DNA of 35,947 nucleotides from a virus (IMGVR_UViG_2897375277_000005), one strand, 5' to 3'; positions 1 to 35,947 are shown, counted from the stretch's first letter. Program-made: numbers and translations. Notes: generated from the letters alone by a model not told the origin.

Positions 1-1023
1 TTATGTGGATGAAATGTGGATACCTCCTTTTAACGGATTAAGTGAAATTGCATCCTGGAGGAAATCAGGAGCGAGGTGCGCATAGGTCATAGTTTGCTGG
101 ATCGTGGCGTGCCCCATAATTCGCTGGAGCGTAAGTATATTTCCTCCATTAATCATAAAGTGAGCTGCAAAGGTATGGCGTAGAACATGTACAGCCTGCC
201 CTTTCGGTAGGTCAGGCTTAACACTGCGAAGCACCTTGCGATATTCCTCATAATTGACGTCAAACAAAAGGCCGGATTTCTTTGTTTTGATCTCACTAAC
301 AACTTCATCAGAGACAGGAATAATTCGAACTTTTCCGTTTTTAGTTTTGTTAAACGTCACGCGGTTATTGATGATGTGTTCCGCGCGCAGATTTTTCGCT
401 TCTCCCCATCTCGCACCAGTACTGAGACAAAGTAGCGTAATCCGCCGGGCATCACCGCTTACTGCATCCAGTAATTTGGCGATTTCTTCCGTGGTGAGAT
501 ACGTCATTTCGGGTGATTTTCGTTTCAAAGAGGGGAGGGCGCGGAGCGGATTTTCTCCGTGAAATTCCCCGGCATTTGCCAGGAGTGTAAACATTCCTCC
601 GAGATCCGACTCATCACGCCGAACAGTAGACTCTTTTACTCCCAAGGATAAACGGGAGCTTCGATAAGCGGCCATGAAACGAGCATTAATCTGGCTAACC
701 CTTGGATCATTCATTTCTTTGATGATTTTTTTCAACCTGGTTAGAACGCCGTTAGCATATGGCTTATTGCGTCCACCCAATTCCCACCATAACGGAAGCA
801 GATCTGAGAGATGACGTTGCTCTGTTGGCTTTTCAAGCCATTCCTTATCGTGCATGTGGCTGAGAACATAACGCTCAAAGGCCACTGCATCTGCCTTTTT
901 CTTAAAAATCCGCTGAATCCGACGTCCACTTCGGCCACGCGGTCTAACATCCACTTTATACCGTCCACCATCGAGCGCTTTAATTGCCATTGGCAAGCCC
1001 TCCGGTGAAACGAGGAAAGACAT
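1..1023 (-). CDS. int: tyrosine integrase (P2 Int family)
   Basis: 340-aa minus-strand ORF at the prophage end next to the repressor; C-terminal region with HxLRHT and tyrosine-recombinase-like motifs (HVLRHTFAAHF...TMTYAHL). Length matches P2 Int (about 337 aa). Confidence 0.88.
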   Translation of the reverse strand: MSFLVSPEGLPMAIKALDGGRYKVDVRPRGRSGRRIQRIFKKKADAVAFERYVLSHMHDKEWLEKPTEQRHLSDLLPLWWELGGRNKPYANGVLTRLKKIIKEMNDPRVSQINARFMAAYRSSRLSLGVKESTVRRDESDLGGMFTLLANAGEFHGENPLRALPSLKRKSPEMTYLTTEEIAKLLDAVSGDARRITLLCLSTGARWGEAKNLRAEHIINNRVTFNKTKNGKVRIIPVSDEVVSEIKTKKSGLLFDVNYEEYRKVLRSVKPDLPKGQAVHVLRHTFAAHFMINGGNILTLQRIMGHATIQQTMTYAHLAPDFLQDAISLNPLKGGIHISST

Positions 1024-4084: not shown

Positions 4085-4204
4085 GAAATCAGAGCATGCA
4101 CACACAAAAAAACCGCTTGCCATGCCGCAATCAGTCAGGTTACATTTCTGCTGCACCTCATAAAACGGGTGCCGGGATTCTCAACCTGCTGACAAACGAA
4201 GCGC

Positions 4205-4228
4205 ACAACCGCGCCAGCGGTTTTTTTG
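4205..4228 (+). terminator. intrinsic-terminator-like hairpin inside the early operon
   Basis: AACCGC (4207-4212), loop GCCA, GCGGTT (4217-4222), followed by a T7 run (4221-4227). Confidence 0.4.
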
Positions 4229-4409
4229 TGCGTACTGTATTGCCACGTCTTTTTCGCACACGAATTATGGTGGGGCGTACGGGGCCGACTTCGGTCGGGC
4301 CGGTTTCTTCGTTTGCCGGTGTTGAGAACCCCGTACGTCTCGCCACCCCGAGATTCTCAACTCTGGTTGGTGAGTATCCAAAAACTCACAAACGAAGAGG
4401 CCAAACACC

Positions 4410-4640
4410 ATGGCAAACCGCAAACAGCACCGCGCTATCGCGGAGCGTCGTCACATCCAGACTGAAATCAACCGCAGACTTTCCCGCGCATTCCGCGTCG
4501 CTAAAATCATGCACATCAATATGCTGCATGAGCGTAGCTGCGAACTTTCAAACCTCTATTCATCCGCTGTTTTCAGCTATCTGGCGGATGATCTGCGCGA
4601 GCTTCAGCAGCTCTTTCAGCAGCAAAACAAACTCCATTAA
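4410..4640 (+). CDS. hypothetical basic protein (76 aa)
   Basis: ORF with GAAGAGG RBS about 10 nt upstream; Arg/Lys-rich N-terminus. No family recognised. Confidence 0.4.
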   Translation: MANRKQHRAIAERRHIQTEINRRLSRAFRVAKIMHINMLHERSCELSNLYSSAVFSYLADDLRELQQLFQQQNKLH

Positions 4641-4712
4641 TTCCTGTTCCAGGCCTTTCCTGCACCTTGCGGCGGGAGGCCTTCGCACATCTGTAGTAAA
4701 GAGAATTGCAGC

Positions 4713-5102
4713 ATGATTGACGCTCATGACTTCACAAGATGGGTGCGCACACAGGACACCCGTCTGGCTCCCATTCTTCAGGGATTATTTGATCTCTACA
4801 TCCGTGGTCGTGACAACAGAGCACGCACCACAAAACCGGAGAATGCGGACACCCTTTATTTCACAGTAGACGACTGCTACCGCGTGGATTTCACACCACA
4901 CGGGCTGGCGTTGCACTGCCTGACACCACACGGCGAATCACTGCTGGCGTATTATGACTCCCCGGCCTCCGTATTTGCGGCAATGCTGGCGCATCGCACT
5001 GCTGGCGGGTGTGCCTCGCTGAGTGAATACACCGCTGAATTTAACCGCCTTTCCGCCATCTTCTCGCAGGAGTGGCAGCGCGTGACGGGATACCAGCCAT
5101 GA
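4713..5102 (+). CDS. hypothetical protein, translationally coupled to A
   Basis: 129-aa ORF; its stop overlaps the A start (ATGA at 5099-5102). Confidence 0.55.
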   Translation: MIDAHDFTRWVRTQDTRLAPILQGLFDLYIRGRDNRARTTKPENADTLYFTVDDCYRVDFTPHGLALHCLTPHGESLLAYYDSPASVFAAMLAHRTAGGCASLSEYTAEFNRLSAIFSQEWQRVTGYQP

Positions 5103-7939
5103 GTGAGTTTGCATGGAGCTGGAATGAACCACGGCCAGCCATTGATCCGGCCAGATTTACGGAGCGCAGGCAGGAAACTGAAACCGACCTGCAACGCGCC
5201 ATCCGTTACTACCTTGAGGCGGACAAAAGGGCACAGGAAGAACAGGAAGCGAAGGAAGAAGCCTTTTTCGCACAATCCGCCATGGGTAAAAAACTCATGG
5301 CATCCCTTGAGGAAGCCGGACAGCGTGAAAAGCTGGCACAGAGCATCATCAGTAAGCGCCGGGCAACAGAACAAGACCCGGTAGCCCGTGCCTTTGCCAC
5401 ACTAAAGGCACTACCTGTTTATCTGCGTGAACCACTGAGCCGCCACCTCTCTTTCCTGCGCAAAAAACAGGAAGCCGATCGCCAGAAAGGCAAAAAGAGC
5501 TGGCAGGCGGAACGCTATGCACGCGGAACCCTGCGCAAAATATTCGAACGTCTGGATCGCACTGACGGACGCTGGCTGACACCGGGTTATCGCTCCCTTG
5601 CCGGGCGCGAACGCCTGGACGATTTGCTTTACCTGCCGCAGCTCAACAAGCACCAGATACAGACGCTGGCCACCATGACCGCGGCGATGTTCAGCAGCAC
5701 CTTCGAAACACTCTGCGATGGCTTTGGTGCCAGAGATGGCGAGCTGACCATGGATGTAATGTTGAAGGCTTACCGGATGCTGGCCCGCATGGCGTTACAC
5801 CTGCACGCCATGCCTCCACATTATGACGCACTAACAACAGACAAAGACCGGAGGAACGAACCGGACACGGAGCTGCTGCCGGGCGCAATCCTTCGCCTGA
5901 CCTGTGCGGAATGGTGGAAACGCAAACTGTGGCTGTTACGTTGCGAGTGGCGGGAAGAACAACTCCGCGCCGCCTGTCTGGTTTCCAGAAAGACATCACC
6001 CTATCTGAGCCAGGACGCGTTAAGCGAGTTTCGCGCACAGCGCGAGAAAACACGCGATTTCCTGAAAAGTTTCATGCTGGAAAACGAAGACGGGTTCACG
6101 ATTGATCTCGAGACAGTGTATTACGCGGGAGTAAGTAACCCGGTTCACCGTAAGGCAGAAATGATGGCCACCATGAAGGGACTGGAACTTCTGGCCGAAG
6201 CCCGTGGCGACAGAGCGGTGTTTCTGACCGTCACCTGCCCGTCAAAATACCACGCAACAACGGAGAACGGTCATCCGAACCCCAAATGGAACGGGGCCAC
6301 CATGCGCGACTCCAGCGATTACCTGGTTAACACGTTTTTTGCGGCGGTCCGCAAAAAACTGAACCGCGACGGCCTGCGCTGGTATGGCATCCGCACGGTG
6401 GAGCCTCACCATGACGGCACTGTGCACTGGCATATGATGGTCTTTGCACATCCGGACGAGATTGAAACCATCGTGTCCCACGTCTGCGATATTGCCATTC
6501 AGGAGGACCGCCACGAGCTGGGCGATGACATAACTCCGCGTTTTAAGGCGGAGTATGTCGACGGCTCAAAAGGCACACCAACCAGCTACATCGCCACCTA
6601 CATCGGAAAGAACCTGGACAGCCGCGCCGTGGATGGCATCGACCCGAAAACGGGCAAGCCACGCGTTGACCACGAAACCGGAAAATCAATGGCCGAGAGC
6701 GTGGAGCGCGCCATCGGCTGGGCGCGCCTTCACCGGGTCCGCCAGTTCCAGTTCTTTGGCATTCCCTCCCGTCAGGTGTGGCGTGAACTCCGCCGCCTTG
6801 CCAGCCAGATGGCACGCAACCCGGAGGGCCCGCAACGGCTGAAGGATGACGCAATGGATGCGGTTCTTGCTGCCGCTGATGCCGGGTGTTTTGCCACCTA
6901 CATTGAAAAACAGGGTGGCGTACTTGTTCCGCGCAAGGACTACCTGATTCGCACAGCCTACGACCTCGCAGATGAGCTGAACGATTACGGCGAACAGAGT
7001 GTACAGATTTACGGGATCTGGTCGCCACTCATCGGGGAATCCTCCCGTGTGTGCACGCACCCGGATAACTGGAAGCTGGTAAGACGTAAACCGGAAGCGG
7101 AAGACAGCACCCACGAAAATGGTTTTGACCTTCAGGGCGGCTCTGCCGCCCCTTGGACTCGTGGCAATAACTGTCCCCGTGTACAGGAAACAGACAACAA
7201 CGGGACAGAACAGCCGGAAGAACGGCCAGCACCGTGGCCGCAGCTTCCTGACGGCGTTGACGTGAACGAATGGGTGCGCTCACTGAAACGGCACGAACGC
7301 CGGGCGCTGATGCGTTCGCTGCGTGACAAACAGGCAAAAAACAGCAGTGATGAAATGCAGAACTGGACACAGAGCCGCAAACAGCCACAGCCTTTGCCTG
7401 ATAACCACGAATTACTCGCTAAAGAATGGCGGGAGTCTGCTGAATCTCTCGGCCTGCATATCGGTGAACAGCAGATGCAGCACCTGTTACGGGGCGGCAG
7501 TCTGTACGTTGACGGCAGCATCATTGCACCGCAGGGATTTGAAATTGTACGCAAACCGGATACCCGACCGGACAGCCGGATCACGCAGCTCTGGCAGCGC
7601 CTGAGCCGTAACCACGGCGTAAGCAGCACGGAGATCCGCCATAACCCGGTCGCCAGCTATCTGGAACAGCTGGGGGCATCAGACCCCGAAGCCGCCGCAC
7701 GCCTGGCATCCACACTTCAGCAAGACCAGAACACCATGAAAACACCCGTTACCGTGCTTTCTGACATGCTGCGCGCCATCCGCGACGCAGAGCACGCACA
7801 GAGAATCAGTGAAACCACTGAACGCGCCCGCCGCAAAGCAGACCTGCTGCGGGGTGGCCTGACCATTGGAAACAAAAAACAGACAGAAACGGGATTCACA
7901 AATCCCGTAAATGAGCAAAAAACGCGCCGCGATATATGA
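5099..7939 (+). CDS. A: replication initiation endonuclease (P2 A family, rolling-circle initiator) with long C-terminal extension
   Basis: 946-aa ORF at the P2 A position at the end of the early operon. Relaxase-like core with HWH (VHWHMMVFAH) and tyrosine (TSYIATYIGKN) motifs. About 180 aa longer than P2 A (761 aa). Confidence 0.8.
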   Translation: MSEFAWSWNEPRPAIDPARFTERRQETETDLQRAIRYYLEADKRAQEEQEAKEEAFFAQSAMGKKLMASLEEAGQREKLAQSIISKRRATEQDPVARAFATLKALPVYLREPLSRHLSFLRKKQEADRQKGKKSWQAERYARGTLRKIFERLDRTDGRWLTPGYRSLAGRERLDDLLYLPQLNKHQIQTLATMTAAMFSSTFETLCDGFGARDGELTMDVMLKAYRMLARMALHLHAMPPHYDALTTDKDRRNEPDTELLPGAILRLTCAEWWKRKLWLLRCEWREEQLRAACLVSRKTSPYLSQDALSEFRAQREKTRDFLKSFMLENEDGFTIDLETVYYAGVSNPVHRKAEMMATMKGLELLAEARGDRAVFLTVTCPSKYHATTENGHPNPKWNGATMRDSSDYLVNTFFAAVRKKLNRDGLRWYGIRTVEPHHDGTVHWHMMVFAHPDEIETIVSHVCDIAIQEDRHELGDDITPRFKAEYVDGSKGTPTSYIATYIGKNLDSRAVDGIDPKTGKPRVDHETGKSMAESVERAIGWARLHRVRQFQFFGIPSRQVWRELRRLASQMARNPEGPQRLKDDAMDAVLAAADAGCFATYIEKQGGVLVPRKDYLIRTAYDLADELNDYGEQSVQIYGIWSPLIGESSRVCTHPDNWKLVRRKPEAEDSTHENGFDLQGGSAAPWTRGNNCPRVQETDNNGTEQPEERPAPWPQLPDGVDVNEWVRSLKRHERRALMRSLRDKQAKNSSDEMQNWTQSRKQPQPLPDNHELLAKEWRESAESLGLHIGEQQMQHLLRGGSLYVDGSIIAPQGFEIVRKPDTRPDSRITQLWQRLSRNHGVSSTEIRHNPVASYLEQLGASDPEAAARLASTLQQDQNTMKTPVTVLSDMLRAIRDAEHAQRISETTERARRKADLLRGGLTIGNKKQTETGFTNPVNEQKTRRDI

Positions 7940-7984
7940 AGCGCGCATAAAACAGGCAAAAACGGGATTTCAGAATCCCGTAAA
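7887..7984. repeat. two copies of a 20-bp palindrome (ACGGGATT-N4-AATCCCGT), centres 73 bp apart; candidate parC-like centromere/operator
   Basis: Copy 1 at 7889-7908, inside the last codons of A; copy 2 at 7962-7981, 35 bp upstream of parM. CAAAAAAC-type motifs recur between them. Confidence 0.5.
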
Positions 7985-8015
7985 CGATTAATTAATCAAC
8001 ATAAGGAAAAGCGAC

Positions 8016-8975
8016 ATGAAAATTTGTATCGATGACGGCTCCACCAACATCAAGCTGGCATGGACTGAGAACGGCGAACGCCGCAACGCCATCAGCCCGA
8101 ACAGCTTCAAGTCGGAATGGTCTGCGCCGTTCGGTGGCACGCAGCCCGCGAACTACATGCTTGATGGCGTGCGCTATGGTTTTGATCCGGTCAGCGATCG
8201 CTTTGTCCAGACGACCGACACGCAATACCAGTACAGCGATGTGAATGTCATTGCCATTCATCACGCGCTGGTCAAATCAGGCATCACACCACAGGAAGTG
8301 GATGTGGTTGTCACCCTGCCACTGAGCGAATATTTCGACACAAACGCACAGCCGGACATGGCCAACATCAACCGCAAAAAAGCAAACGTCATGCGCCCGG
8401 TGGCGTACCAGAACGGAAAAGCATTCACTATCCGTAACGTACGGGTTATGCCTGAATCCATTCCGGCTGGTTTTAAAGCACTGGCTGACATGAGTCCGTT
8501 TGAATCCCTGCTGATTGTGGATTTAGGCGGAACCACGCTGGATGTGGCAAAGGTTCAGGGACAACTGGCAGGTATCAGCCAGGTGTTTTGCGATCCACAC
8601 GTAGGCGTTTCCCTGATGGCCGATGCCGTACTGTCGGTGATGGCCACTAACGGTATGCGTACCAGTCACCATATCGCCAATACCATTATCGAACATCGCC
8701 ACGATGAAGCCTGGCTGCGCCAGCACATCCACAATGACGCGCATTACGACAGCCTGATGGCGGTTATTCGTGAAAAGGAAGAAACACTGAAACAACGAGT
8801 GATCCGCGCGCTGGCGGGTTTTTCGGGTTACGGGCGGGTGATGGTTGTCGGTGGCGGGGCGGAGATTGTGGCACCCGCTATCCGCGAAGCCTGCGGAGTT
8901 AATGCGACTTTCATCGCGGACGGGGTGCCACAGTTTGCTCTGGTTAATGGGCTGTACGCAATGGACAAGGAGTAA
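8016..8975 (+). CDS. parM: actin-like segregation ATPase ParM/StbA
   Basis: N-terminus MKICIDDGSTNIKLAW...ISPNSFKSEW...YQYSDVNVIAIHHAL...RKKANV matches remembered plasmid R1 ParM (MLVFIDDGSTNIKLQW...ISPNSFKREW...WQYSDVNVVAVHHAL...RKKAN). Also carries the actin-fold phosphate motifs (DLGGTTLD, VVGGGAE). Confidence 0.85.
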   Translation: MKICIDDGSTNIKLAWTENGERRNAISPNSFKSEWSAPFGGTQPANYMLDGVRYGFDPVSDRFVQTTDTQYQYSDVNVIAIHHALVKSGITPQEVDVVVTLPLSEYFDTNAQPDMANINRKKANVMRPVAYQNGKAFTIRNVRVMPESIPAGFKALADMSPFESLLIVDLGGTTLDVAKVQGQLAGISQVFCDPHVGVSLMADAVLSVMATNGMRTSHHIANTIIEHRHDEAWLRQHIHNDAHYDSLMAVIREKEETLKQRVIRALAGFSGYGRVMVVGGGAEIVAPAIREACGVNATFIADGVPQFALVNGLYAMDKE

Positions 8976-8979
8976 ACCA

Positions 8980-9291
8980 ATGACGACACCAACCAGACGG
9001 ATAAGTTTCTATCTGAAGCCCGCCGCCGTCAAGAACGAAGGCGAAGCATGCGCCTGGCTGGACAGCCTTACACCAGAAGCCCGCAAAAGCGGCCAACGTG
9101 TGGCTTTTCTGGCCGGGCTGGCACTTCTGAAAATGAATCCGGCAGAGGCTTACCGACTGGCTGCATGGGCTGACGATGAGGCGTTATCAGTGACACAAAC
9201 CAGGACAGAACGCCCCGCGTCACAGCCAGTACCAACCTCACAGATAACCAGTCGGATGGCCGGAAATATCAGGGCGTTATTTCCCGAATAA
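8980..9291 (+). CDS. parR: ParR/StbB-like centromere-binding adaptor
   Basis: 103 aa directly downstream of parM with AGGAG RBS. RISFYLKPAAV...LDSLTPEARKSGQRVAFLAGLAL resembles R1 ParR (RTIAFKLNPDV...LDSIPQGERSRLNRAALTAGLAL). Confidence 0.65.
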   Translation: MTTPTRRISFYLKPAAVKNEGEACAWLDSLTPEARKSGQRVAFLAGLALLKMNPAEAYRLAAWADDEALSVTQTRTERPASQPVPTSQITSRMAGNIRALFPE

Positions 9292-9354
9292 CACAACATC
9301 AGGGCGCATCCGCCCTGATGACTTTAATCCGGGAACATAAACAAGGGGGACACA

Positions 9355-9690
9355 ATGCAACACATTGACAGAGAAAAAGCGCAGCGACTGATTGAGCGGA
9401 TGGAAGCGCTGGCGAAAGAAGAAAATGTCAACATCCAAAAAATAGCTGAATGTGGCCAGATAGTTCTTCGTCGTGAAAAAGACCTCAAACAACTGATGTC
9501 TGGCGAAACCAGCAAAACATGGACTTCAGGCGAGGAGACGATTTATTGCAGCTTCTGCAATAAATCTCAGTACGAAGTCACAAAGGTGATTGCCGGACCG
9601 TCTGTTTGCATCTGCAATGAGTGCGTGGATTTGTGCAATGAAATTATCAAGGGAGAAGTGACAGACCATGAAGAAAAAACGCATGAATGA
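9355..9690 (+). CDS. small protein with C-terminal ClpX-type C4 zinc-binding domain
   Basis: Residues 64-105 ([39 protein letters not shown]) are near-identical to the ClpX N-terminal zinc-binding domain ([41 protein letters not shown]). N-terminal 60 aa is helical and charged. AGGGGG RBS. Confidence 0.7.
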
Positions 9691-9750
9691 CGAATTTGAC
9701 GGCTTTTAATTTTATCGGGGTGCACTGTCGCCCCGCACGAGGAAAACACG

Positions 9751-10275
9751 ATGAAAAAATACGAATACATGCTAATGAAAGAAGCACTGCGGGCTGGTCT
9801 GGCTCCCTGTCCTGTATCCGTAGAAGCTGTTGTTGGGAACACGATTTTCCGAACGCTGCGAAATCGCGTATCCGTGAAGATGATTCACCAACCACCCAAA
9901 TCTACCAGCATGATCTATCTGCCGCTGCCCGAGGCTATCAAACTTATGCGTTCGCTGAAATTTGCGATTTGGATGCAGACACAACTCAACAAAGCGGTGC
10001 AAAACACCTTCGTTAAGAAACTGATGCCGGAGCTTGCTGCCAGAAGTGCAAAATGTACCAGACCCGCACTTCAATTTGATCTGTCATTGATTCAACAAGC
10101 TACGGAGGCAGAACTGTACCGCCTGTCACCTCTCCATGATGCTCACACGGAAGCCTCAGAAATGTTCCGGCTCATGTTTCAATTTAATTTTGCCGTTCGA
10201 CGCACACGCATTCAGGTCAATCGCATGATGCAGGCGCAGGAAGAGCTGACGCAACACAAAGGAGGCAACCAGTGA
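9751..10275 (+). CDS. hypothetical protein (174 aa)
   Basis: ORF with GAGGAAA RBS; no recognisable motif. Confidence 0.5.
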   Translation: MKKYEYMLMKEALRAGLAPCPVSVEAVVGNTIFRTLRNRVSVKMIHQPPKSTSMIYLPLPEAIKLMRSLKFAIWMQTQLNKAVQNTFVKKLMPELAARSAKCTRPALQFDLSLIQQATEAELYRLSPLHDAHTEASEMFRLMFQFNFAVRRTRIQVNRMMQAQEELTQHKGGNQ

Positions 10276-10447
10276 GCAAAATTGACTATCAGGCATTACG
10301 CGAGGCGGCACAAAACTATCAATCGACGCTGGCGTGGTATGAGGTTGACGCGGGCTAGTTTTGCCGCAAGGATAATTCGTTTCAGCGGGTGATTTTTTGC
10401 GCTATCATTCCGGCAGTGGTTCACGATTATTGGCAGGAAAGGCAATT

Positions 10448-11041
10448 ATGAGCAGTAAAAAAAATAAAATAACATCTATGGCCGCAGCGCTGGCGGTGGC
10501 TCTCGCCCCTGTTCCTGCCAGTAGCATTGTGCATCATGACTTATCAATCTCCCGGCACAGTACGTCTACGCTATCCCTCCAGGACGTAAAGGATTCTGTG
10601 GCATACCTTCCTATTGATGAGGCCACCAGTTATATGCTTAACCTGGCTGATAGGATGAAGACACACAGGGCAAACCTTCGCATCGAATGGGAAGAAAAGC
10701 AGATCCCTATTATTCTGAAAAATCAGAAAAAAGAGACTCAGGAAGGGTTTGAAAGCCTTTTCCGTCATATTGCGGTATGTGCAAGTTTTGTCGAGGCTGC
10801 AAGGGTTGCGCTGAAAAGCGTACCTGAAAGTAACGCGGAACTGAGAAAAGAGATTGTCGCTTTTGCTCGTTCCGCTGCGACGCTCCGCTATACGATTGAA
10901 GATATTTTATCCTTCATTGAAAGCACGCATGTGCCGAAGAAAACTTCAGATGCTGATCTGGGTGTTACCGCCGATCAGGTTCGCGCACTTATCCGCAGTG
11001 AACATAAAAAGCTGGGCCTTAAAGATCCAACGTTCCATTAA
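10448..11041 (+). CDS. hypothetical protein with N-terminal hydrophobic/signal-like segment (197 aa), upstream partner of the YafO-like toxin
   Basis: AGGAAAGG RBS before ATG 10448. N-terminus MSSKKNKITSMAAALAVALAPVPASS; stop lies 10 bp before the next start. Confidence 0.55.
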   Translation: MSSKKNKITSMAAALAVALAPVPASSIVHHDLSISRHSTSTLSLQDVKDSVAYLPIDEATSYMLNLADRMKTHRANLRIEWEEKQIPIILKNQKKETQEGFESLFRHIAVCASFVEAARVALKSVPESNAELRKEIVAFARSAATLRYTIEDILSFIESTHVPKKTSDADLGVTADQVRALIRSEHKKLGLKDPTFH

Positions 11042-11050
11042 GGCAGGGCC

Positions 11051-11431
11051 ATGATTAAAGTCTCTGTCCACAATGACATAGAACTCCCCGCAGTTGCTCG
11101 TAAATATGCACATGCTTTGCAGTCATGGAAAAACGGCGGATCTTTACCCTCAGTCTTTGGCAACGAAGGGCAGTGGGAAGATAGCGGGCGTCTTCGTGAT
11201 TCTTTTGTTTTTAAGATTCACATTCGTTTACCTGATGAACAGCCGTGGCCTGCAAAGCTACCTGCCGCCTCGCGTAAATCAAACAGTTATCTTGTTTACT
11301 CCCGCCATTTCTTATATCCAGATAAGTATCAGCTAATCAGCATTATGACACCCAATGCGCATGAGTTAGCCCGTACATCCTACATGGCAGAAATTGAGCG
11401 CAGAGCAGAAGAGTTCCAGTCTTCTTTTTGA
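11051..11431 (+). CDS. YafO-family toxin (ribosome-dependent mRNA interferase family)
   Basis: 126 aa. HIRLPDEQPWP...SYLVYSRHFLYPDKYQLISIMTPNAHELARTSYMAEIERRAEEF aligns with remembered E. coli YafO (HIHLANENNPFP...AHLVYCQGAFDEQAWLLIAILKPEPHKLARDNNQMHKIGKMAEAF). Confidence 0.65.
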   Translation: MIKVSVHNDIELPAVARKYAHALQSWKNGGSLPSVFGNEGQWEDSGRLRDSFVFKIHIRLPDEQPWPAKLPAASRKSNSYLVYSRHFLYPDKYQLISIMTPNAHELARTSYMAEIERRAEEFQSSF

Positions 11432-26283: not shown

Positions 26284-26883
26284 ATGCTTATTGGCTATGT
26301 CCGCGTATCAACAAATGACCAGAATACAGAATTGCAGCGTAACGCGCTGGAGTGCGCAGGATGTGAACTGATTTTTGAAGATAAAATCAGCGGAACGAAA
26401 TCAGCCAGACCGGGATTGAAAAAACTGCTCAGAACGCTATCAGAAGGAGATACGCTGGTTGTCTGGAAGCTGGACAGACTGGGCAGAAGTATGAAACACC
26501 TGATCACGCTTATTGAGGAATTGCGGGAAAAAGGTGTTAATTTCCGTAGTCTGACGGACAGCATTGACACATCAACACCCATGGGGCGTTTCTTTTTTCA
26601 CGTCATGGGAGCTTTAGCCGAAATGGAACGTGAATTAATTGTAGAGCGTACACTGGCCGGGCTGGCAGCAGCACGCGCACAAGGACGCATTGGCGGACGT
26701 CGCCCGAAGTTGACAAAAGAACAACACGAGCAAATAGCGAGGCTGATTAAAAACGGTCATGACAGGAAACAACTGGCGATCATTTACGACATCGGCATAT
26801 CGACGATTTATCGTTATCACCCTGTAGGCGATATACAGGCTGAAGAAACAACCAGGCAGATTCAGGAAAATGAAAACCGCTAA
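26284..26883 (+). CDS. serine DNA invertase (Hin/Gin/Cin/Pin family)
   Basis: MLIGYVRVSTNDQNTELQ...GDTLVVWKLDRLGRSMKHL...catalytic Ser in VRVST and C-terminal HTH; 199 aa. Confidence 0.9.
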   Translation: MLIGYVRVSTNDQNTELQRNALECAGCELIFEDKISGTKSARPGLKKLLRTLSEGDTLVVWKLDRLGRSMKHLITLIEELREKGVNFRSLTDSIDTSTPMGRFFFHVMGALAEMERELIVERTLAGLAAARAQGRIGGRRPKLTKEQHEQIARLIKNGHDRKQLAIIYDIGISTIYRYHPVGDIQAEETTRQIQENENR

Positions 26884-34512: not shown

Positions 34513-34809
34513 ATGAGTGAAATGGTATTTTGTCGCGGATGCGGCAAGGAAATACATAAAGATGCCACATCCTGCCCCAATTGTGGAGCACCTCAAAGAA
34601 CAGCAAGTTCAAAAAGCAGAATGACAGCCGCACTACTGGCTTTCTTTTTAGGTGGTCTTGGTGCACACAAATTTTATTTAGGTAAAGTGGGGCAAGGATT
34701 CCTTTACCTTATTTTTTGCTGGACATTCATTCCGGCAATCGTGGCATTTATTGAGTTTTTTATCTATCTATGCACCTCTGATGAAGACTTTGCCCGCAAA
34801 TATGGCTAA
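34513..34809 (+). CDS. zinc-ribbon plus TM2-domain membrane protein
   Basis: N-terminal CxxC...CxxC (CRGCGKEIHKDATSCPNCG) followed by two hydrophobic helices typical of TM2-domain proteins (LAFFLGGLGAHKFYLGK...). Confidence 0.6.
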   Translation: MSEMVFCRGCGKEIHKDATSCPNCGAPQRTASSKSRMTAALLAFFLGGLGAHKFYLGKVGQGFLYLIFCWTFIPAIVAFIEFFIYLCTSDEDFARKYG

Positions 34810-34998: not shown

Positions 34999-35196
34999 AT
35001 GACGCAAAATGTACGATGCAAAAATTGCAACAAACTACTTGCCCGCGCCTCATTTCACTACATTGAAATAAAATGTCCGCGCTGCAAAACACTTAACCAG
35101 ATAACGAGAGCCATCGAGCACCCCACACACATGAGGAGTTATGACCGTGGGGATCGCAATCCAGCACCAACCAGCACATACACCGGAACACACTAA
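34999..35196 (+). CDS. com: Com-like zinc-finger protein (Mu Com family translational activator)
   Basis: VRCKNCNKLLARASFHYIEIKCPRCK matches Mu Com (IRCKNCNKLLFKADSFDHIEIRCPRCK); AAGAGG RBS; its 3' end overlaps the methyltransferase start. Confidence 0.65.
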   Translation: MTQNVRCKNCNKLLARASFHYIEIKCPRCKTLNQITRAIEHPTHMRSYDRGDRNPAPTSTYTGTH

Positions 35197-35947
35197 GGTT
35201 TATCAGACTGACAATGCCACGCTCTGTCGTGGGAATGCGCTGGAAATATTGCCGCTGATTGAGCCAGAAAGTATTGATGCCTTAATCACTGACCCGCCTT
35301 ACAGTTCGGGCGCGACACACAAGGCCGGACGCACCAACCAGGGCAGCCACGCAAAATATCTGAACGGCGAGAACCTTCATCGCTTTGATGGGTTTGCGGG
35401 TGAAAACATGGATGCCCGTTCGTGGGCTTACTGGACACAATTATGGATGGCACAGGCACACCGCGCAGTCAGGCCGGGCGGTTATGCCCTGGTATTTACT
35501 GACTGGCGACAACTACCAGCTTTAACCGATGCGTTTCAGGCCAGTGGCTTTACATGGCGCGGTATCATTGCGTGGAACAAGGGGAGGGGGTCACGAACAC
35601 CCCATACCGGGTATTTCCGGCATCAGTGCGAATACATTGTCTGGGGCAGCAAAGGCCATTTAGATAAATCGCCTTCGGGGCCGTTCGACGGCTGCATGAC
35701 GTTCCCGGTTATCCCGTCAAAGAAAATGCACCCGACCGGAAAACCAGAAGAACTAATGGCAGAGCTGGTCAGGACTGTGAATAGTGGCGGAACAGTCCTT
35801 GATCCTTTTATGGGGTCAGGGACAACGGGTGTGGCTGCACTGAAAGCAGGGCGAAAATTTATTGGTATAGAAACCAGTGATCATTATTTTGAGGTAGCAG
35901 CGCAGCGGCTTCGGGGGACTATTACCACAACCATTTCGGCTACATAA
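35141..35947 (+). CDS. DNA amino-methyltransferase (N6-adenine or N4-cytosine, beta-class motif order)
   Basis: DPPY motif (LITDPPYSS) followed C-terminally by the SAM-binding FxGxG motif (FMGSGTTGVAA); GAGGAG RBS. Specificity cannot be told from sequence alone. Confidence 0.8.
   Translation: MTVGIAIQHQPAHTPEHTKVYQTDNATLCRGNALEILPLIEPESIDALITDPPYSSGATHKAGRTNQGSHAKYLNGENLHRFDGFAGENMDARSWAYWTQLWMAQAHRAVRPGGYALVFTDWRQLPALTDAFQASGFTWRGIIAWNKGRGSRTPHTGYFRHQCEYIVWGSKGHLDKSPSGPFDGCMTFPVIPSKKMHPTGKPEELMAELVRTVNSGGTVLDPFMGSGTTGVAALKAGRKFIGIETSDHYFEVAAQRLRGTITTTISAT

Follow-up and report, generated by a model that had tools for sequence, protein, structure and literature searches.

Type II partition systems, such as ParMRC of plasmid R1, are made up of an actin-fold ATPase (ParM), a ParR adaptor with an N-terminal ribbon-helix-helix, and a ParR-binding repeat array (parC) upstream of parM in which the operon promoter, repressed by ParR itself, is embedded. 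R1 ParM and ParR also bind and stimulate TraI, a relaxase of the HUH type (PMC4949242). In the integrative conjugative elements (ICEs) belonging to the SXT/R391 family, srpMRC was shown experimentally to stabilise the transient circle of the element, and four srpC repeats suffice for SrpR binding and for function (Carraro et al. 2015, PMC4489591). The AlpAC genes of the Corynebacterium prophage CGP3 show early induction, and efficient replication of the phage DNA requires the two proteins (Donovan et al. 2015, PMC4446434). A "putative plasmid partitioning system" was noticed in about a fourth of the P2-like phages of Escherichia coli by Rousset et al. (2022, PMC9122126), who counted the pair among the systems of the gpA-Q hotspot and suggested plasmid-like maintenance; their tables list pairs of StbA plus Plasmid_stab_B, among them the two proteins of strain JJ1886, WP_000686485 and WP_000211282. 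Both the core observation and its episomal interpretation have therefore been published already, as an untested remark. Here we analyze the parMR pair carried by the viral DNA IMGVR_UViG_2897375277_000005 (35,947 nucleotides, hereafter the window). The window corresponds to a prophage which is P2-like and belongs to the P88 type (Xuanwuvirus, Peduoviridae); over the 1.7-kb par region (positions 7700-9400) it is 98.4% identical to phage P88 at the nucleotide level. In the RefSeq entry of P88 a "replication endonuclease" is directly followed by a "plasmid segregation protein ParM" and a "partition protein".

As a find, the parMR locus is already known. The initial annotation of the window held a partition system to be unexpected in a P2-like phage; this was overstated, the pair being annotated in P88, present in about 1300 of 5426 complete E. 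coli genomes and noted by Rousset et al., and srpMRC and AlpAC being experimental precedents of ParM-like systems on integrative elements. What the present analysis adds concerns the selection acting on the genes, their tie to the gpA replication gene, synteny across genera, chromosomal residence, a missing promoter-like site and a two-dyad architecture upstream of parM. In the literature we found no paper testing why an integrating rolling-circle phage needs parMR. We propose, with moderate confidence, that parMR is a working ParMRC-type (type II, actin-like) DNA-moving module, which belongs to the replication module of P88-type phages and would act on extrachromosomal phage circles.

ParM and ParR proteins

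ParM matches the Pfam families StbA_N (6.9e-82) and ParM C-terminal domain (9.9e-69), and in a phmmer comparison with PDB sequences it aligns at E 2.3e-92 with R1 ParM (1mwk), over residues 2-316 of 319. The resemblance therefore covers the whole protein, well beyond the 120 N-terminal residues over which, at least, the match had been noticed in the initial annotation. Identity to an R1-type IncFII ParM is 46.5%. The DDGST, PES (E147), DLGGTTLD and GGGA motifs are invariant across the ParMs of the phage clade; these phosphate-1, phosphate-2 and adenosine motifs are established in ParM as nucleotide-binding. By Pfam domains, PDB match and motifs alike, ParM is the actin-fold ATPase of a type II system.

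The parR gene starts 4 nt past the parM stop codon, and is preceded by an AAGGAG ribosome-binding site. Its product matches Plasmid_stab_B (PF10784, 1.6e-24). A single-sequence search of the PDB with ParR gave nothing meaningful. The AlphaFold2 monomer, computed from a 19-sequence alignment, was poor, as expected for an obligate dimer (mean predicted local distance difference test score, pLDDT, of 54; N-terminal strand modelled as a helix), and was not used; ParR was therefore assessed by profile-against-PDB searches. The top match of a profile built from phage ParRs only is ParR of plasmid pB171 (2JD3, E 0.0018, residues 9-74), and the E-value drops to 4.6e-14 when plasmid ParRs are added to the profile. 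PF10784 and the 2JD3 profile match bear out the assignment of this open reading frame (ORF) to the ParR family, and at the level of the sequence alone the adaptor with an N-terminal ribbon-helix-helix is recognized.

ParR has an RRISFYLKP segment and helices in its N-terminal part, which a hypervariable linker connects to a conserved tail, N-I-x-x-[LFM]-F-P, at the C-terminus. Both RRISFYLKP and the tail motif are invariant in 19 phage ParRs, 43-94% identical to the ParR of the window, and the tail motif aligns with NAMKLIN of R1 ParR. The C-terminus of R1 ParR is the ParM-binding peptide, as established by structural work.

Selection was monitored in 80 close relatives from IMG/VR and three further copies, pooling the ratio of nonsynonymous to synonymous polymorphism (pN/pS). 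The parM ORF is intact in 82 of 83 copies, with a pooled pN/pS of 0.06; parR is intact in 79 of the 80 copies in which it is covered, and its pN/pS is 0.13 in the N-terminal domain (codons 1-64), rises to 0.46 along the linker and drops to 0.03 over the C-terminal tail. The parMR pair is thus under strong purifying selection, and the pattern of conservation along ParR is that of a functional adaptor, with a predicted DNA-binding head, a flexible linker and a putative motor-binding tail.

In a neighbour-joining tree of ParM, too rough for a claim of monophyly, phage copies fall into two deep groups (Escherichia/Plesiomonas/Hafnia and Serratia/Enterobacter), neither of which is nested within a plasmid subclade. 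A match in an Apirhabdus "plasmid" (62% over a fragment) was rejected as a phage relative, because it is a frameshifted R1-like plasmid parMR located beside umuDC.

Repeats upstream of parM

A perfect 20-bp dyad, ACGGGATT-N4-AATCCCGT, is found at 7889-7908 (dyad 1) and again at 7962-7981 (dyad 2), 73 bp start to start. Two palindromes of this length and spacing, the first within the last codons of gpA, had been described initially, and both statements hold exactly. Dyad 1 reads ACGGGATTCACAAATCCCGT, and has an A-rich tract ahead; dyad 2 reads ACGGGATTTCAGAATCCCGT, and lies 35-54 nt upstream of the parM ATG. In shuffled sequence dyad matches averaged 0.01, and two were reached in none of 100 shuffles. 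The half-site CGGGATT occurs at chance level elsewhere in the window. The dyads are the cores of a 42-nt direct repeat which includes the A-rich tract, and whose two units (Table 1) are 81% identical.

Both dyads are kept in all of the 80 close relatives, with a spacing of 72-73 bp. Dyad 2 has exactly the form found in the window, flanks included, in 42 of the 80; its arms vary less (0.03-0.05) than its loop (0.19), and the GGGAT core is nearly invariant. In Plesiomonas a pair of repeats containing GCGGGACAAC (CGGGA) is found at matching positions, 72 bp apart. Serratia and Enterobacter feature a long inverted repeat with a GGGAAC core and the same A-tract ahead. Since (C/T)GGGA repeats recur in Plesiomonas, Serratia and Enterobacter, a repeated element upstream of parM is a conserved trait. 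Its architecture differs between lineages, as is usual for partition sites. Neither the dyads nor the hairpin found past parR match any Rfam family. Compared with parC, repeats which are not random are present upstream of parM, but consist of two dyads, without direct iterons. That the dyads make up a centromere is plausible.

In about half of the E. coli copies, including those of O157:H7 and of the ST131 strain JJ1886, the match to the window stops at about 9034, near codon 18 of parR. Past this codon these copies hold a ParR allele 52-57% identical to that of the window, ParM and the dyads being still about 97% identical. This makes ParR a mosaic, with much greater diversity than ParM. Co-resident P88-like prophages were checked for an incompatibility signature, in the form of different ParR or dyad alleles; only two pairs were available, too few for an inference, ParR being shared in one pair and differing in the other.

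Transcription signals

A consensus scan of the gpA-parM interval found no promoter-like site and no terminator on the + strand. Scanned for promoters with a position weight matrix (PWM), the 181 bp ahead of the phage parM score 2.94 at best. Random stretches of the same length from this phage have a median score of 5.07, and three parC regions of plasmids reach 9.6-11.8. Sequence prediction thus gives no embedded operon promoter of the type II kind. Of the R1-type locus described initially, the two genes, true members of their families, and the upstream repeats stand; the repeat region, made of two dyads and lacking a promoter-like site, is not R1-like. As neither a promoter-like site nor a + strand terminator was found, parMR is presumably read mainly from the early operon, together with gpA, its upstream neighbour and probable co-transcription partner. 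Expression from the early operon predicts that ParM and ParR are made during infection or induction, and are absent from the repressed lysogen. A weak, ParR-controlled promoter may reside at dyad 2.

The 10-bp hairpin past parR is present as initially described, but is inconstant, being found in 40 of 75 close relatives. It sits where the variable cargo region starts, and many E. coli matches end at about 9291-9320; it is probably a transcription stop or a module boundary.

Distribution and link to gpA

parM is found in 1279-1303 of 5426 complete E. coli genomes, about a quarter, and the P88-type gpA (at least 80% coverage) in approximately the same number, 1320. Carriers include the O157:H7 and ST131 lineages. 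The order gpA-parM-parR-(variable genes)-portal is kept in prophages of Hafnia (ParM 62% identical), Plesiomonas (63%), Serratia (58%) and Enterobacter (53%), the latter known from a separate look-up, outside the scan of species-representative genomes. In that scan, places where the best ParM tblastn segment is at most 53% identical have no gpA within 4 kb upstream. In all seven non-Escherichia loci of the phage clade examined parMR adjoins gpA, and prophages of five genera besides Escherichia have the pair in this place. Similarity among relatives breaks after parR, or inside parR at about 9034, and the genes located downstream turn over. parMR is part of the replication module and distinct from the variable cargo. 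By recombination this replication/par block (gpA-parM) seems to become joined to differing structural modules of the P2-like type. Relatives of this ParM were found, in a set of 50,697 phage records, in P88-like phages and in the phage-plasmid D6 (47.8%) only.

Some further matches were recorded. In Escherichia albertii NBRC 107761 gpA is 94% and ParM 99% identical to those of the window, the portal only 30%. On a Dickeya chromosome, an integrated conjugative element that also encodes TraG_N, TraU and an integrase carries a ParM/ParR pair (ParM 49%), another type II partition system on an integrative element. Enterobacterial ParMs were also found on contigs labelled Vagococcus, Streptomyces, Clostridiales, Lachnospiraceae and Micromonospora; the one labelled Vagococcus has a ParM 97% identical to that of the window, along with P88-type gpA and portal. 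These contigs most likely reflect assembly contamination.

Chromosomal residence

In the same 5426 genomes parM occupies 1443 places, 1441 chromosomal and 2 on plasmids. Seven records match in PLSDB. One of them, NZ_CP148288.1 (E. coli Z1323PEC0009, from a cat), is a circular "plasmid" of 34,461 bp which corresponds in full to a P88-like phage, structural genes, integrase, Cox, gpA and parMR included. Either the phage was assembled while excised and replicating, or the record reflects an episomal state, which would be rare. The integrase predicted initially in this P2-like phage is confirmed, a C-type repressor and Cox are also encoded in the window, and integrase and the C/Cox switch are kept in every relative examined. 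The only replication function identified in the region is the rolling-circle initiator gpA, a plasmid-type replicon not having been searched for. The traits of a phage-plasmid were not found: 1441 places against 2 do not support an autonomous replicon in the lysogen, and an integration module is in place, integrase, repressor and Cox being present. A stable phage-plasmid life style is therefore unsupported by the places in which the element occurs. Of the readings offered in the initial annotation, a stable episomal state fares poorly on these counts; positioning or segregation of replicating or excised phage DNA fits best.

Proposed role of parMR

According to the model that we favor, parM and parR would be transcribed mainly by read-through from the early lytic operon ending with gpA, so that both proteins would be made while the phage genome is extrachromosomal and replicates by rolling circle, following infection or induction, and would be missing from the repressed lysogen. 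Dimers of ParR would bind both dyads at the gpA-parM junction, which at 73 bp, about seven helical turns, should lie on the same face of the helix, and each phage circle would thereby acquire a small partition complex. The ends of ParM filaments would be captured by the conserved C-terminal tail of ParR, and polymerisation of ParM may push, position or space the circles as gpA replicates them. The likely benefit would be efficient replication and packaging, delivery of circles to both daughters as long as the cell still divides, or both, in parallel with CGP3 AlpAC and SXT/R391 srpMRC. Long-term plasmid maintenance would not be the role of the system. Binding of ParR to the dyads, co-transcription with gpA and action on phage circles are the steps that we infer.

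Several observations weigh against this model. The absence of a promoter was judged by consensus and PWM scans only, and the Hafnia relative has a fair promoter-like site, with a score of 8.88, over the proximal repeat. The left arm of dyad 1 is imperfect (ACGGGAcT) in 34 of the 80 relatives, and among close relatives the arms of the dyads are not better conserved than the flanks. Two candidate sites are few compared with the ten iterons of R1 parC, and a full partition complex may not form. Both dyads resemble terminators of the minus strand, as does the hairpin past parR, each with a T-rich tail. ParR alleles are 52-95% identical and the dyads nearly unchanged, which would not obviously be expected of a tightly co-evolving pair of centromere and adaptor. 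Finally, a lytic cell does not divide, and segregation by itself may bring no benefit.

Alternative explanations

Some of these observations would be accounted for if the dyads were not a centromere, but RNA hairpins, minus-strand terminators shielding gpA from antisense transcription, or a mere ParR operator, the true site being elsewhere or absent. Besides their terminator-like look, their number and the unremarkable conservation of their arms, the RNA of the + strand folds strongly (z = -4.0). Yet no minus-strand genes needing termination are found between the dyads and the parR-distal hairpin, and the A-tract-plus-GGGA element recurs in Serratia and Enterobacter without an adjacent hairpin, and both facts weaken the terminator reading. 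Further, Plesiomonas retains the spacing of 72-73 bp with repeats that make poor hairpins, the sequence changes seen in the two dyads fail to maintain pairing consistently on either strand, and in SXT as few as four repeats are enough for SrpR binding and srpC function. On balance we regard a role of the dyads other than as a centromere as rather unlikely. The same grade fits the idea, which would make segregation secondary, that ParM and ParR are accessory factors of the nickase, and might contact the HUH endonuclease gpA to stimulate nicking or initiation, or to localise the replisome. It draws on the adjacency of parMR and gpA in the seven loci outside Escherichia and on the similar numbers of E. 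coli genomes carrying either gene, on the movement of the gpA-parM block as a unit between structural modules, on the location of dyad 1 inside the 3' end of gpA, on the stimulation of TraI by the R1 proteins (PMC4949242), and on SXT, where srpMRC adjoins oriT and replication proceeds through TraI. The argument is nevertheless by analogy alone, gpA and TraI are very distant relatives, and the synteny is explained equally well by the need of co-expression. Were ParM and ParR dedicated partners of gpA, HUH nickases would turn out to be functionally coupled to actin-like partition systems in general, in plasmids as in ICEs and phages, and the system would be a device organising replication rather than inheritance.

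Two other explanations we consider very unlikely, each of them. One is the plasmid-like maintenance guessed by Rousset et al. and put first in the initial annotation, by which the prophage would be kept outside the chromosome, as a phage-plasmid, with the help of parMR. ParM and ParR are bona fide homologues of plasmid partition proteins, and NZ_CP148288.1 is a circular record of a whole phage; but spontaneous induction in culture explains this lone record equally well, and the explanation has to face the predominance of chromosomal places (1441 vs. 2), the integrase and C/Cox of every relative examined, gpA as the sole replication function identified (a plasmid-type replicon was not searched for), and the lack of a promoter-like site for expression of parMR in the repressed state. 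The other regards parMR as accessory cargo of the gpA-Q hotspot, serving the host or the contest of one element with another, for instance through interference with ParMRC-dependent plasmids or rival phages, with no role on the phage's own DNA. The pair is at the gpA-proximal edge of this P2 defence/cargo hotspot, where Rousset et al. list it, the PhiSM paper lists parMR as a "fitness" gene, and ParR alleles are highly diverse. Against cargo speak the number of genomes, which is about that of one gpA type, and the persistence of parMR across genera as downstream genes turn over; in addition, neither ParM nor ParR has a match in PADLOC, no promoter-like site would support expression in the lysogen, and a pair of repeats is maintained in cis on the phage itself. 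The module acting on phage circles is left as the explanation that we prefer.

The question raised is what an actin-like partition pair does for an integrating rolling-circle phage found in about a quarter of E. coli genomes. ParMRC may have a second life, organising viral replication or stabilising transient circles, for which one Gram-positive prophage and one family of ICEs are the precedents, and the two-dyad site could be a centromere of minimal size. In practical terms the value is modest; annotation of the system exists already, and the answer is likely to extend known biology.

Neighbouring features

The coordinates of the features discussed are given in Table 1. The cargo between parR and the portal (9355-11431, + strand) consists of four ORFs, and the set varies between relatives. 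PADLOC gave no match for these four ORFs, as it gave none for ParM and ParR, and none of the six proteins was assigned to a defence family.

Table 1. Features of the prophage around parMR (positions in the window)
Feature	Position	Strand	Remarks
Integrase	1-1023	-	
gpA-type rolling-circle replication endonuclease	5072-7939	+	Pfam Phage_GPA 7.9e-129; P88 annotation; start codon uncertain
gpA stop codon	7937-7939	+	
Distal repeat unit	7873-7914		Dyad 1 inside; within last gpA codons; candidate ParR binding site
Proximal repeat unit	7946-7987		Dyad 2 inside; intergenic; candidate ParR binding site or operator
parM, actin-fold ATPase, 319 amino acids	8016-8975	+	Pfam, PDB R1 ParM match
parR, ParR/StbB-family adaptor, 103 amino acids	8980-9291	+	Pfam PF10784, 2JD3 profile match
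Hairpin, 10-bp stem, 4-nt loop	9297-9320		End of par operon
ORF, ClpX-type zinc finger only	9355-9690	+	Cargo
ORF without family	9751-10275	+	Cargo
ORF without family	10448-11041	+	Cargo
YafO-family toxin	11051-11431	+	Cargo

Other features were noticed in the window. Two Rfam families, the Hfq-binding RNA isrK (4153-4227, 62 bits) and the C4 antisense RNA (4263-4350, 79 bits), are found back to back on the + strand in the early operon, overlapping an Ash-like ORF (4096-4716); together they look like an antisense immunity element of the P1/P7 style in a P2-like phage. A serine DNA invertase of the Gin/Cin type (26284-26883, + strand; Resolvase, 6.1e-52) is located beside oppositely oriented ORFs for tail fibre and assembly proteins, an arrangement suggestive of host-range switching by inversion. 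At its right end the window encodes, on the + strand, a TM2-domain protein with a zinc ribbon (34513-34809) and an N6/N4 DNA methylase (35141-35947).

Comparison with known systems

The locus annotated in P88/Xuanwuvirus, and that mentioned by Rousset et al. (2022, PMC9122126), is the same as the one analyzed here. Knowledge of it consisted of an annotation and a one-sentence guess; in the sources consulted the dyads, the missing promoter, the tie to one gpA type and the synteny across genera are unmentioned. With R1 ParMRC (ParM 1MWM/4A62) and the pB171 system (ParR 2JD3) the phage locus shares the order repeats-parM-parR. ParM aligns with R1 ParM in full, with identical nucleotide-binding motifs, and ParR belongs to the same Pfam family as the R1 and pB171 ParRs and has the conserved C-terminal tail; identity to the R1-type proteins is 46.5% for ParM, about 25-29% for ParR. 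The sites differ. R1-type parC is formed by two sets of five direct 11-bp iterons around a strong promoter, the phage region by two 20-bp dyads 73 bp apart, and the best promoter scores are 11.76 and 2.94, respectively. Two other plasmid loci resemble the R1 type, with arrays of direct iterons of 10-11 bp. The replicons differ as well, R1 being a low-copy theta plasmid, the element described here an integrating rolling-circle phage. Partition genes are likewise phage-borne in D6 (StbA-type), P1 (ParAB) and N15 (SopAB), but these phages are maintained as plasmids.

Closer in life style are two systems found on integrated elements. CGP3 of Corynebacterium is an integrated prophage with an actin-like ATPase and a DNA-binding adaptor, AlpAC, the site of the adaptor, alpS, being upstream of the operon (Donovan et al. 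2015, PMC4446434). AlpAC belongs to a different actin-like family (the match of the phage ParM to the Pfam family ALP_N is marginal, 7.8e-06), and gene order, phage type and host phylum are other than those of the P88-type phage. SrpM and SrpR of the SXT/R391 elements are only distantly related to ParM and ParR, and SrpR lacks homology to ParR, whereas the phage proteins are clear members of their families; the function of srpMRC is experimental, and the phage system is known here from sequence. Shared with the phage locus is that srpMRC, a type II-like system, resides on an element which is normally chromosomal; in SXT/R391 the transient circular form of the element is replicated by an HUH nickase, and the centromere is small, with a handful of repeats, some direct and some inverted (Carraro et al. 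2015, PMC4489591).

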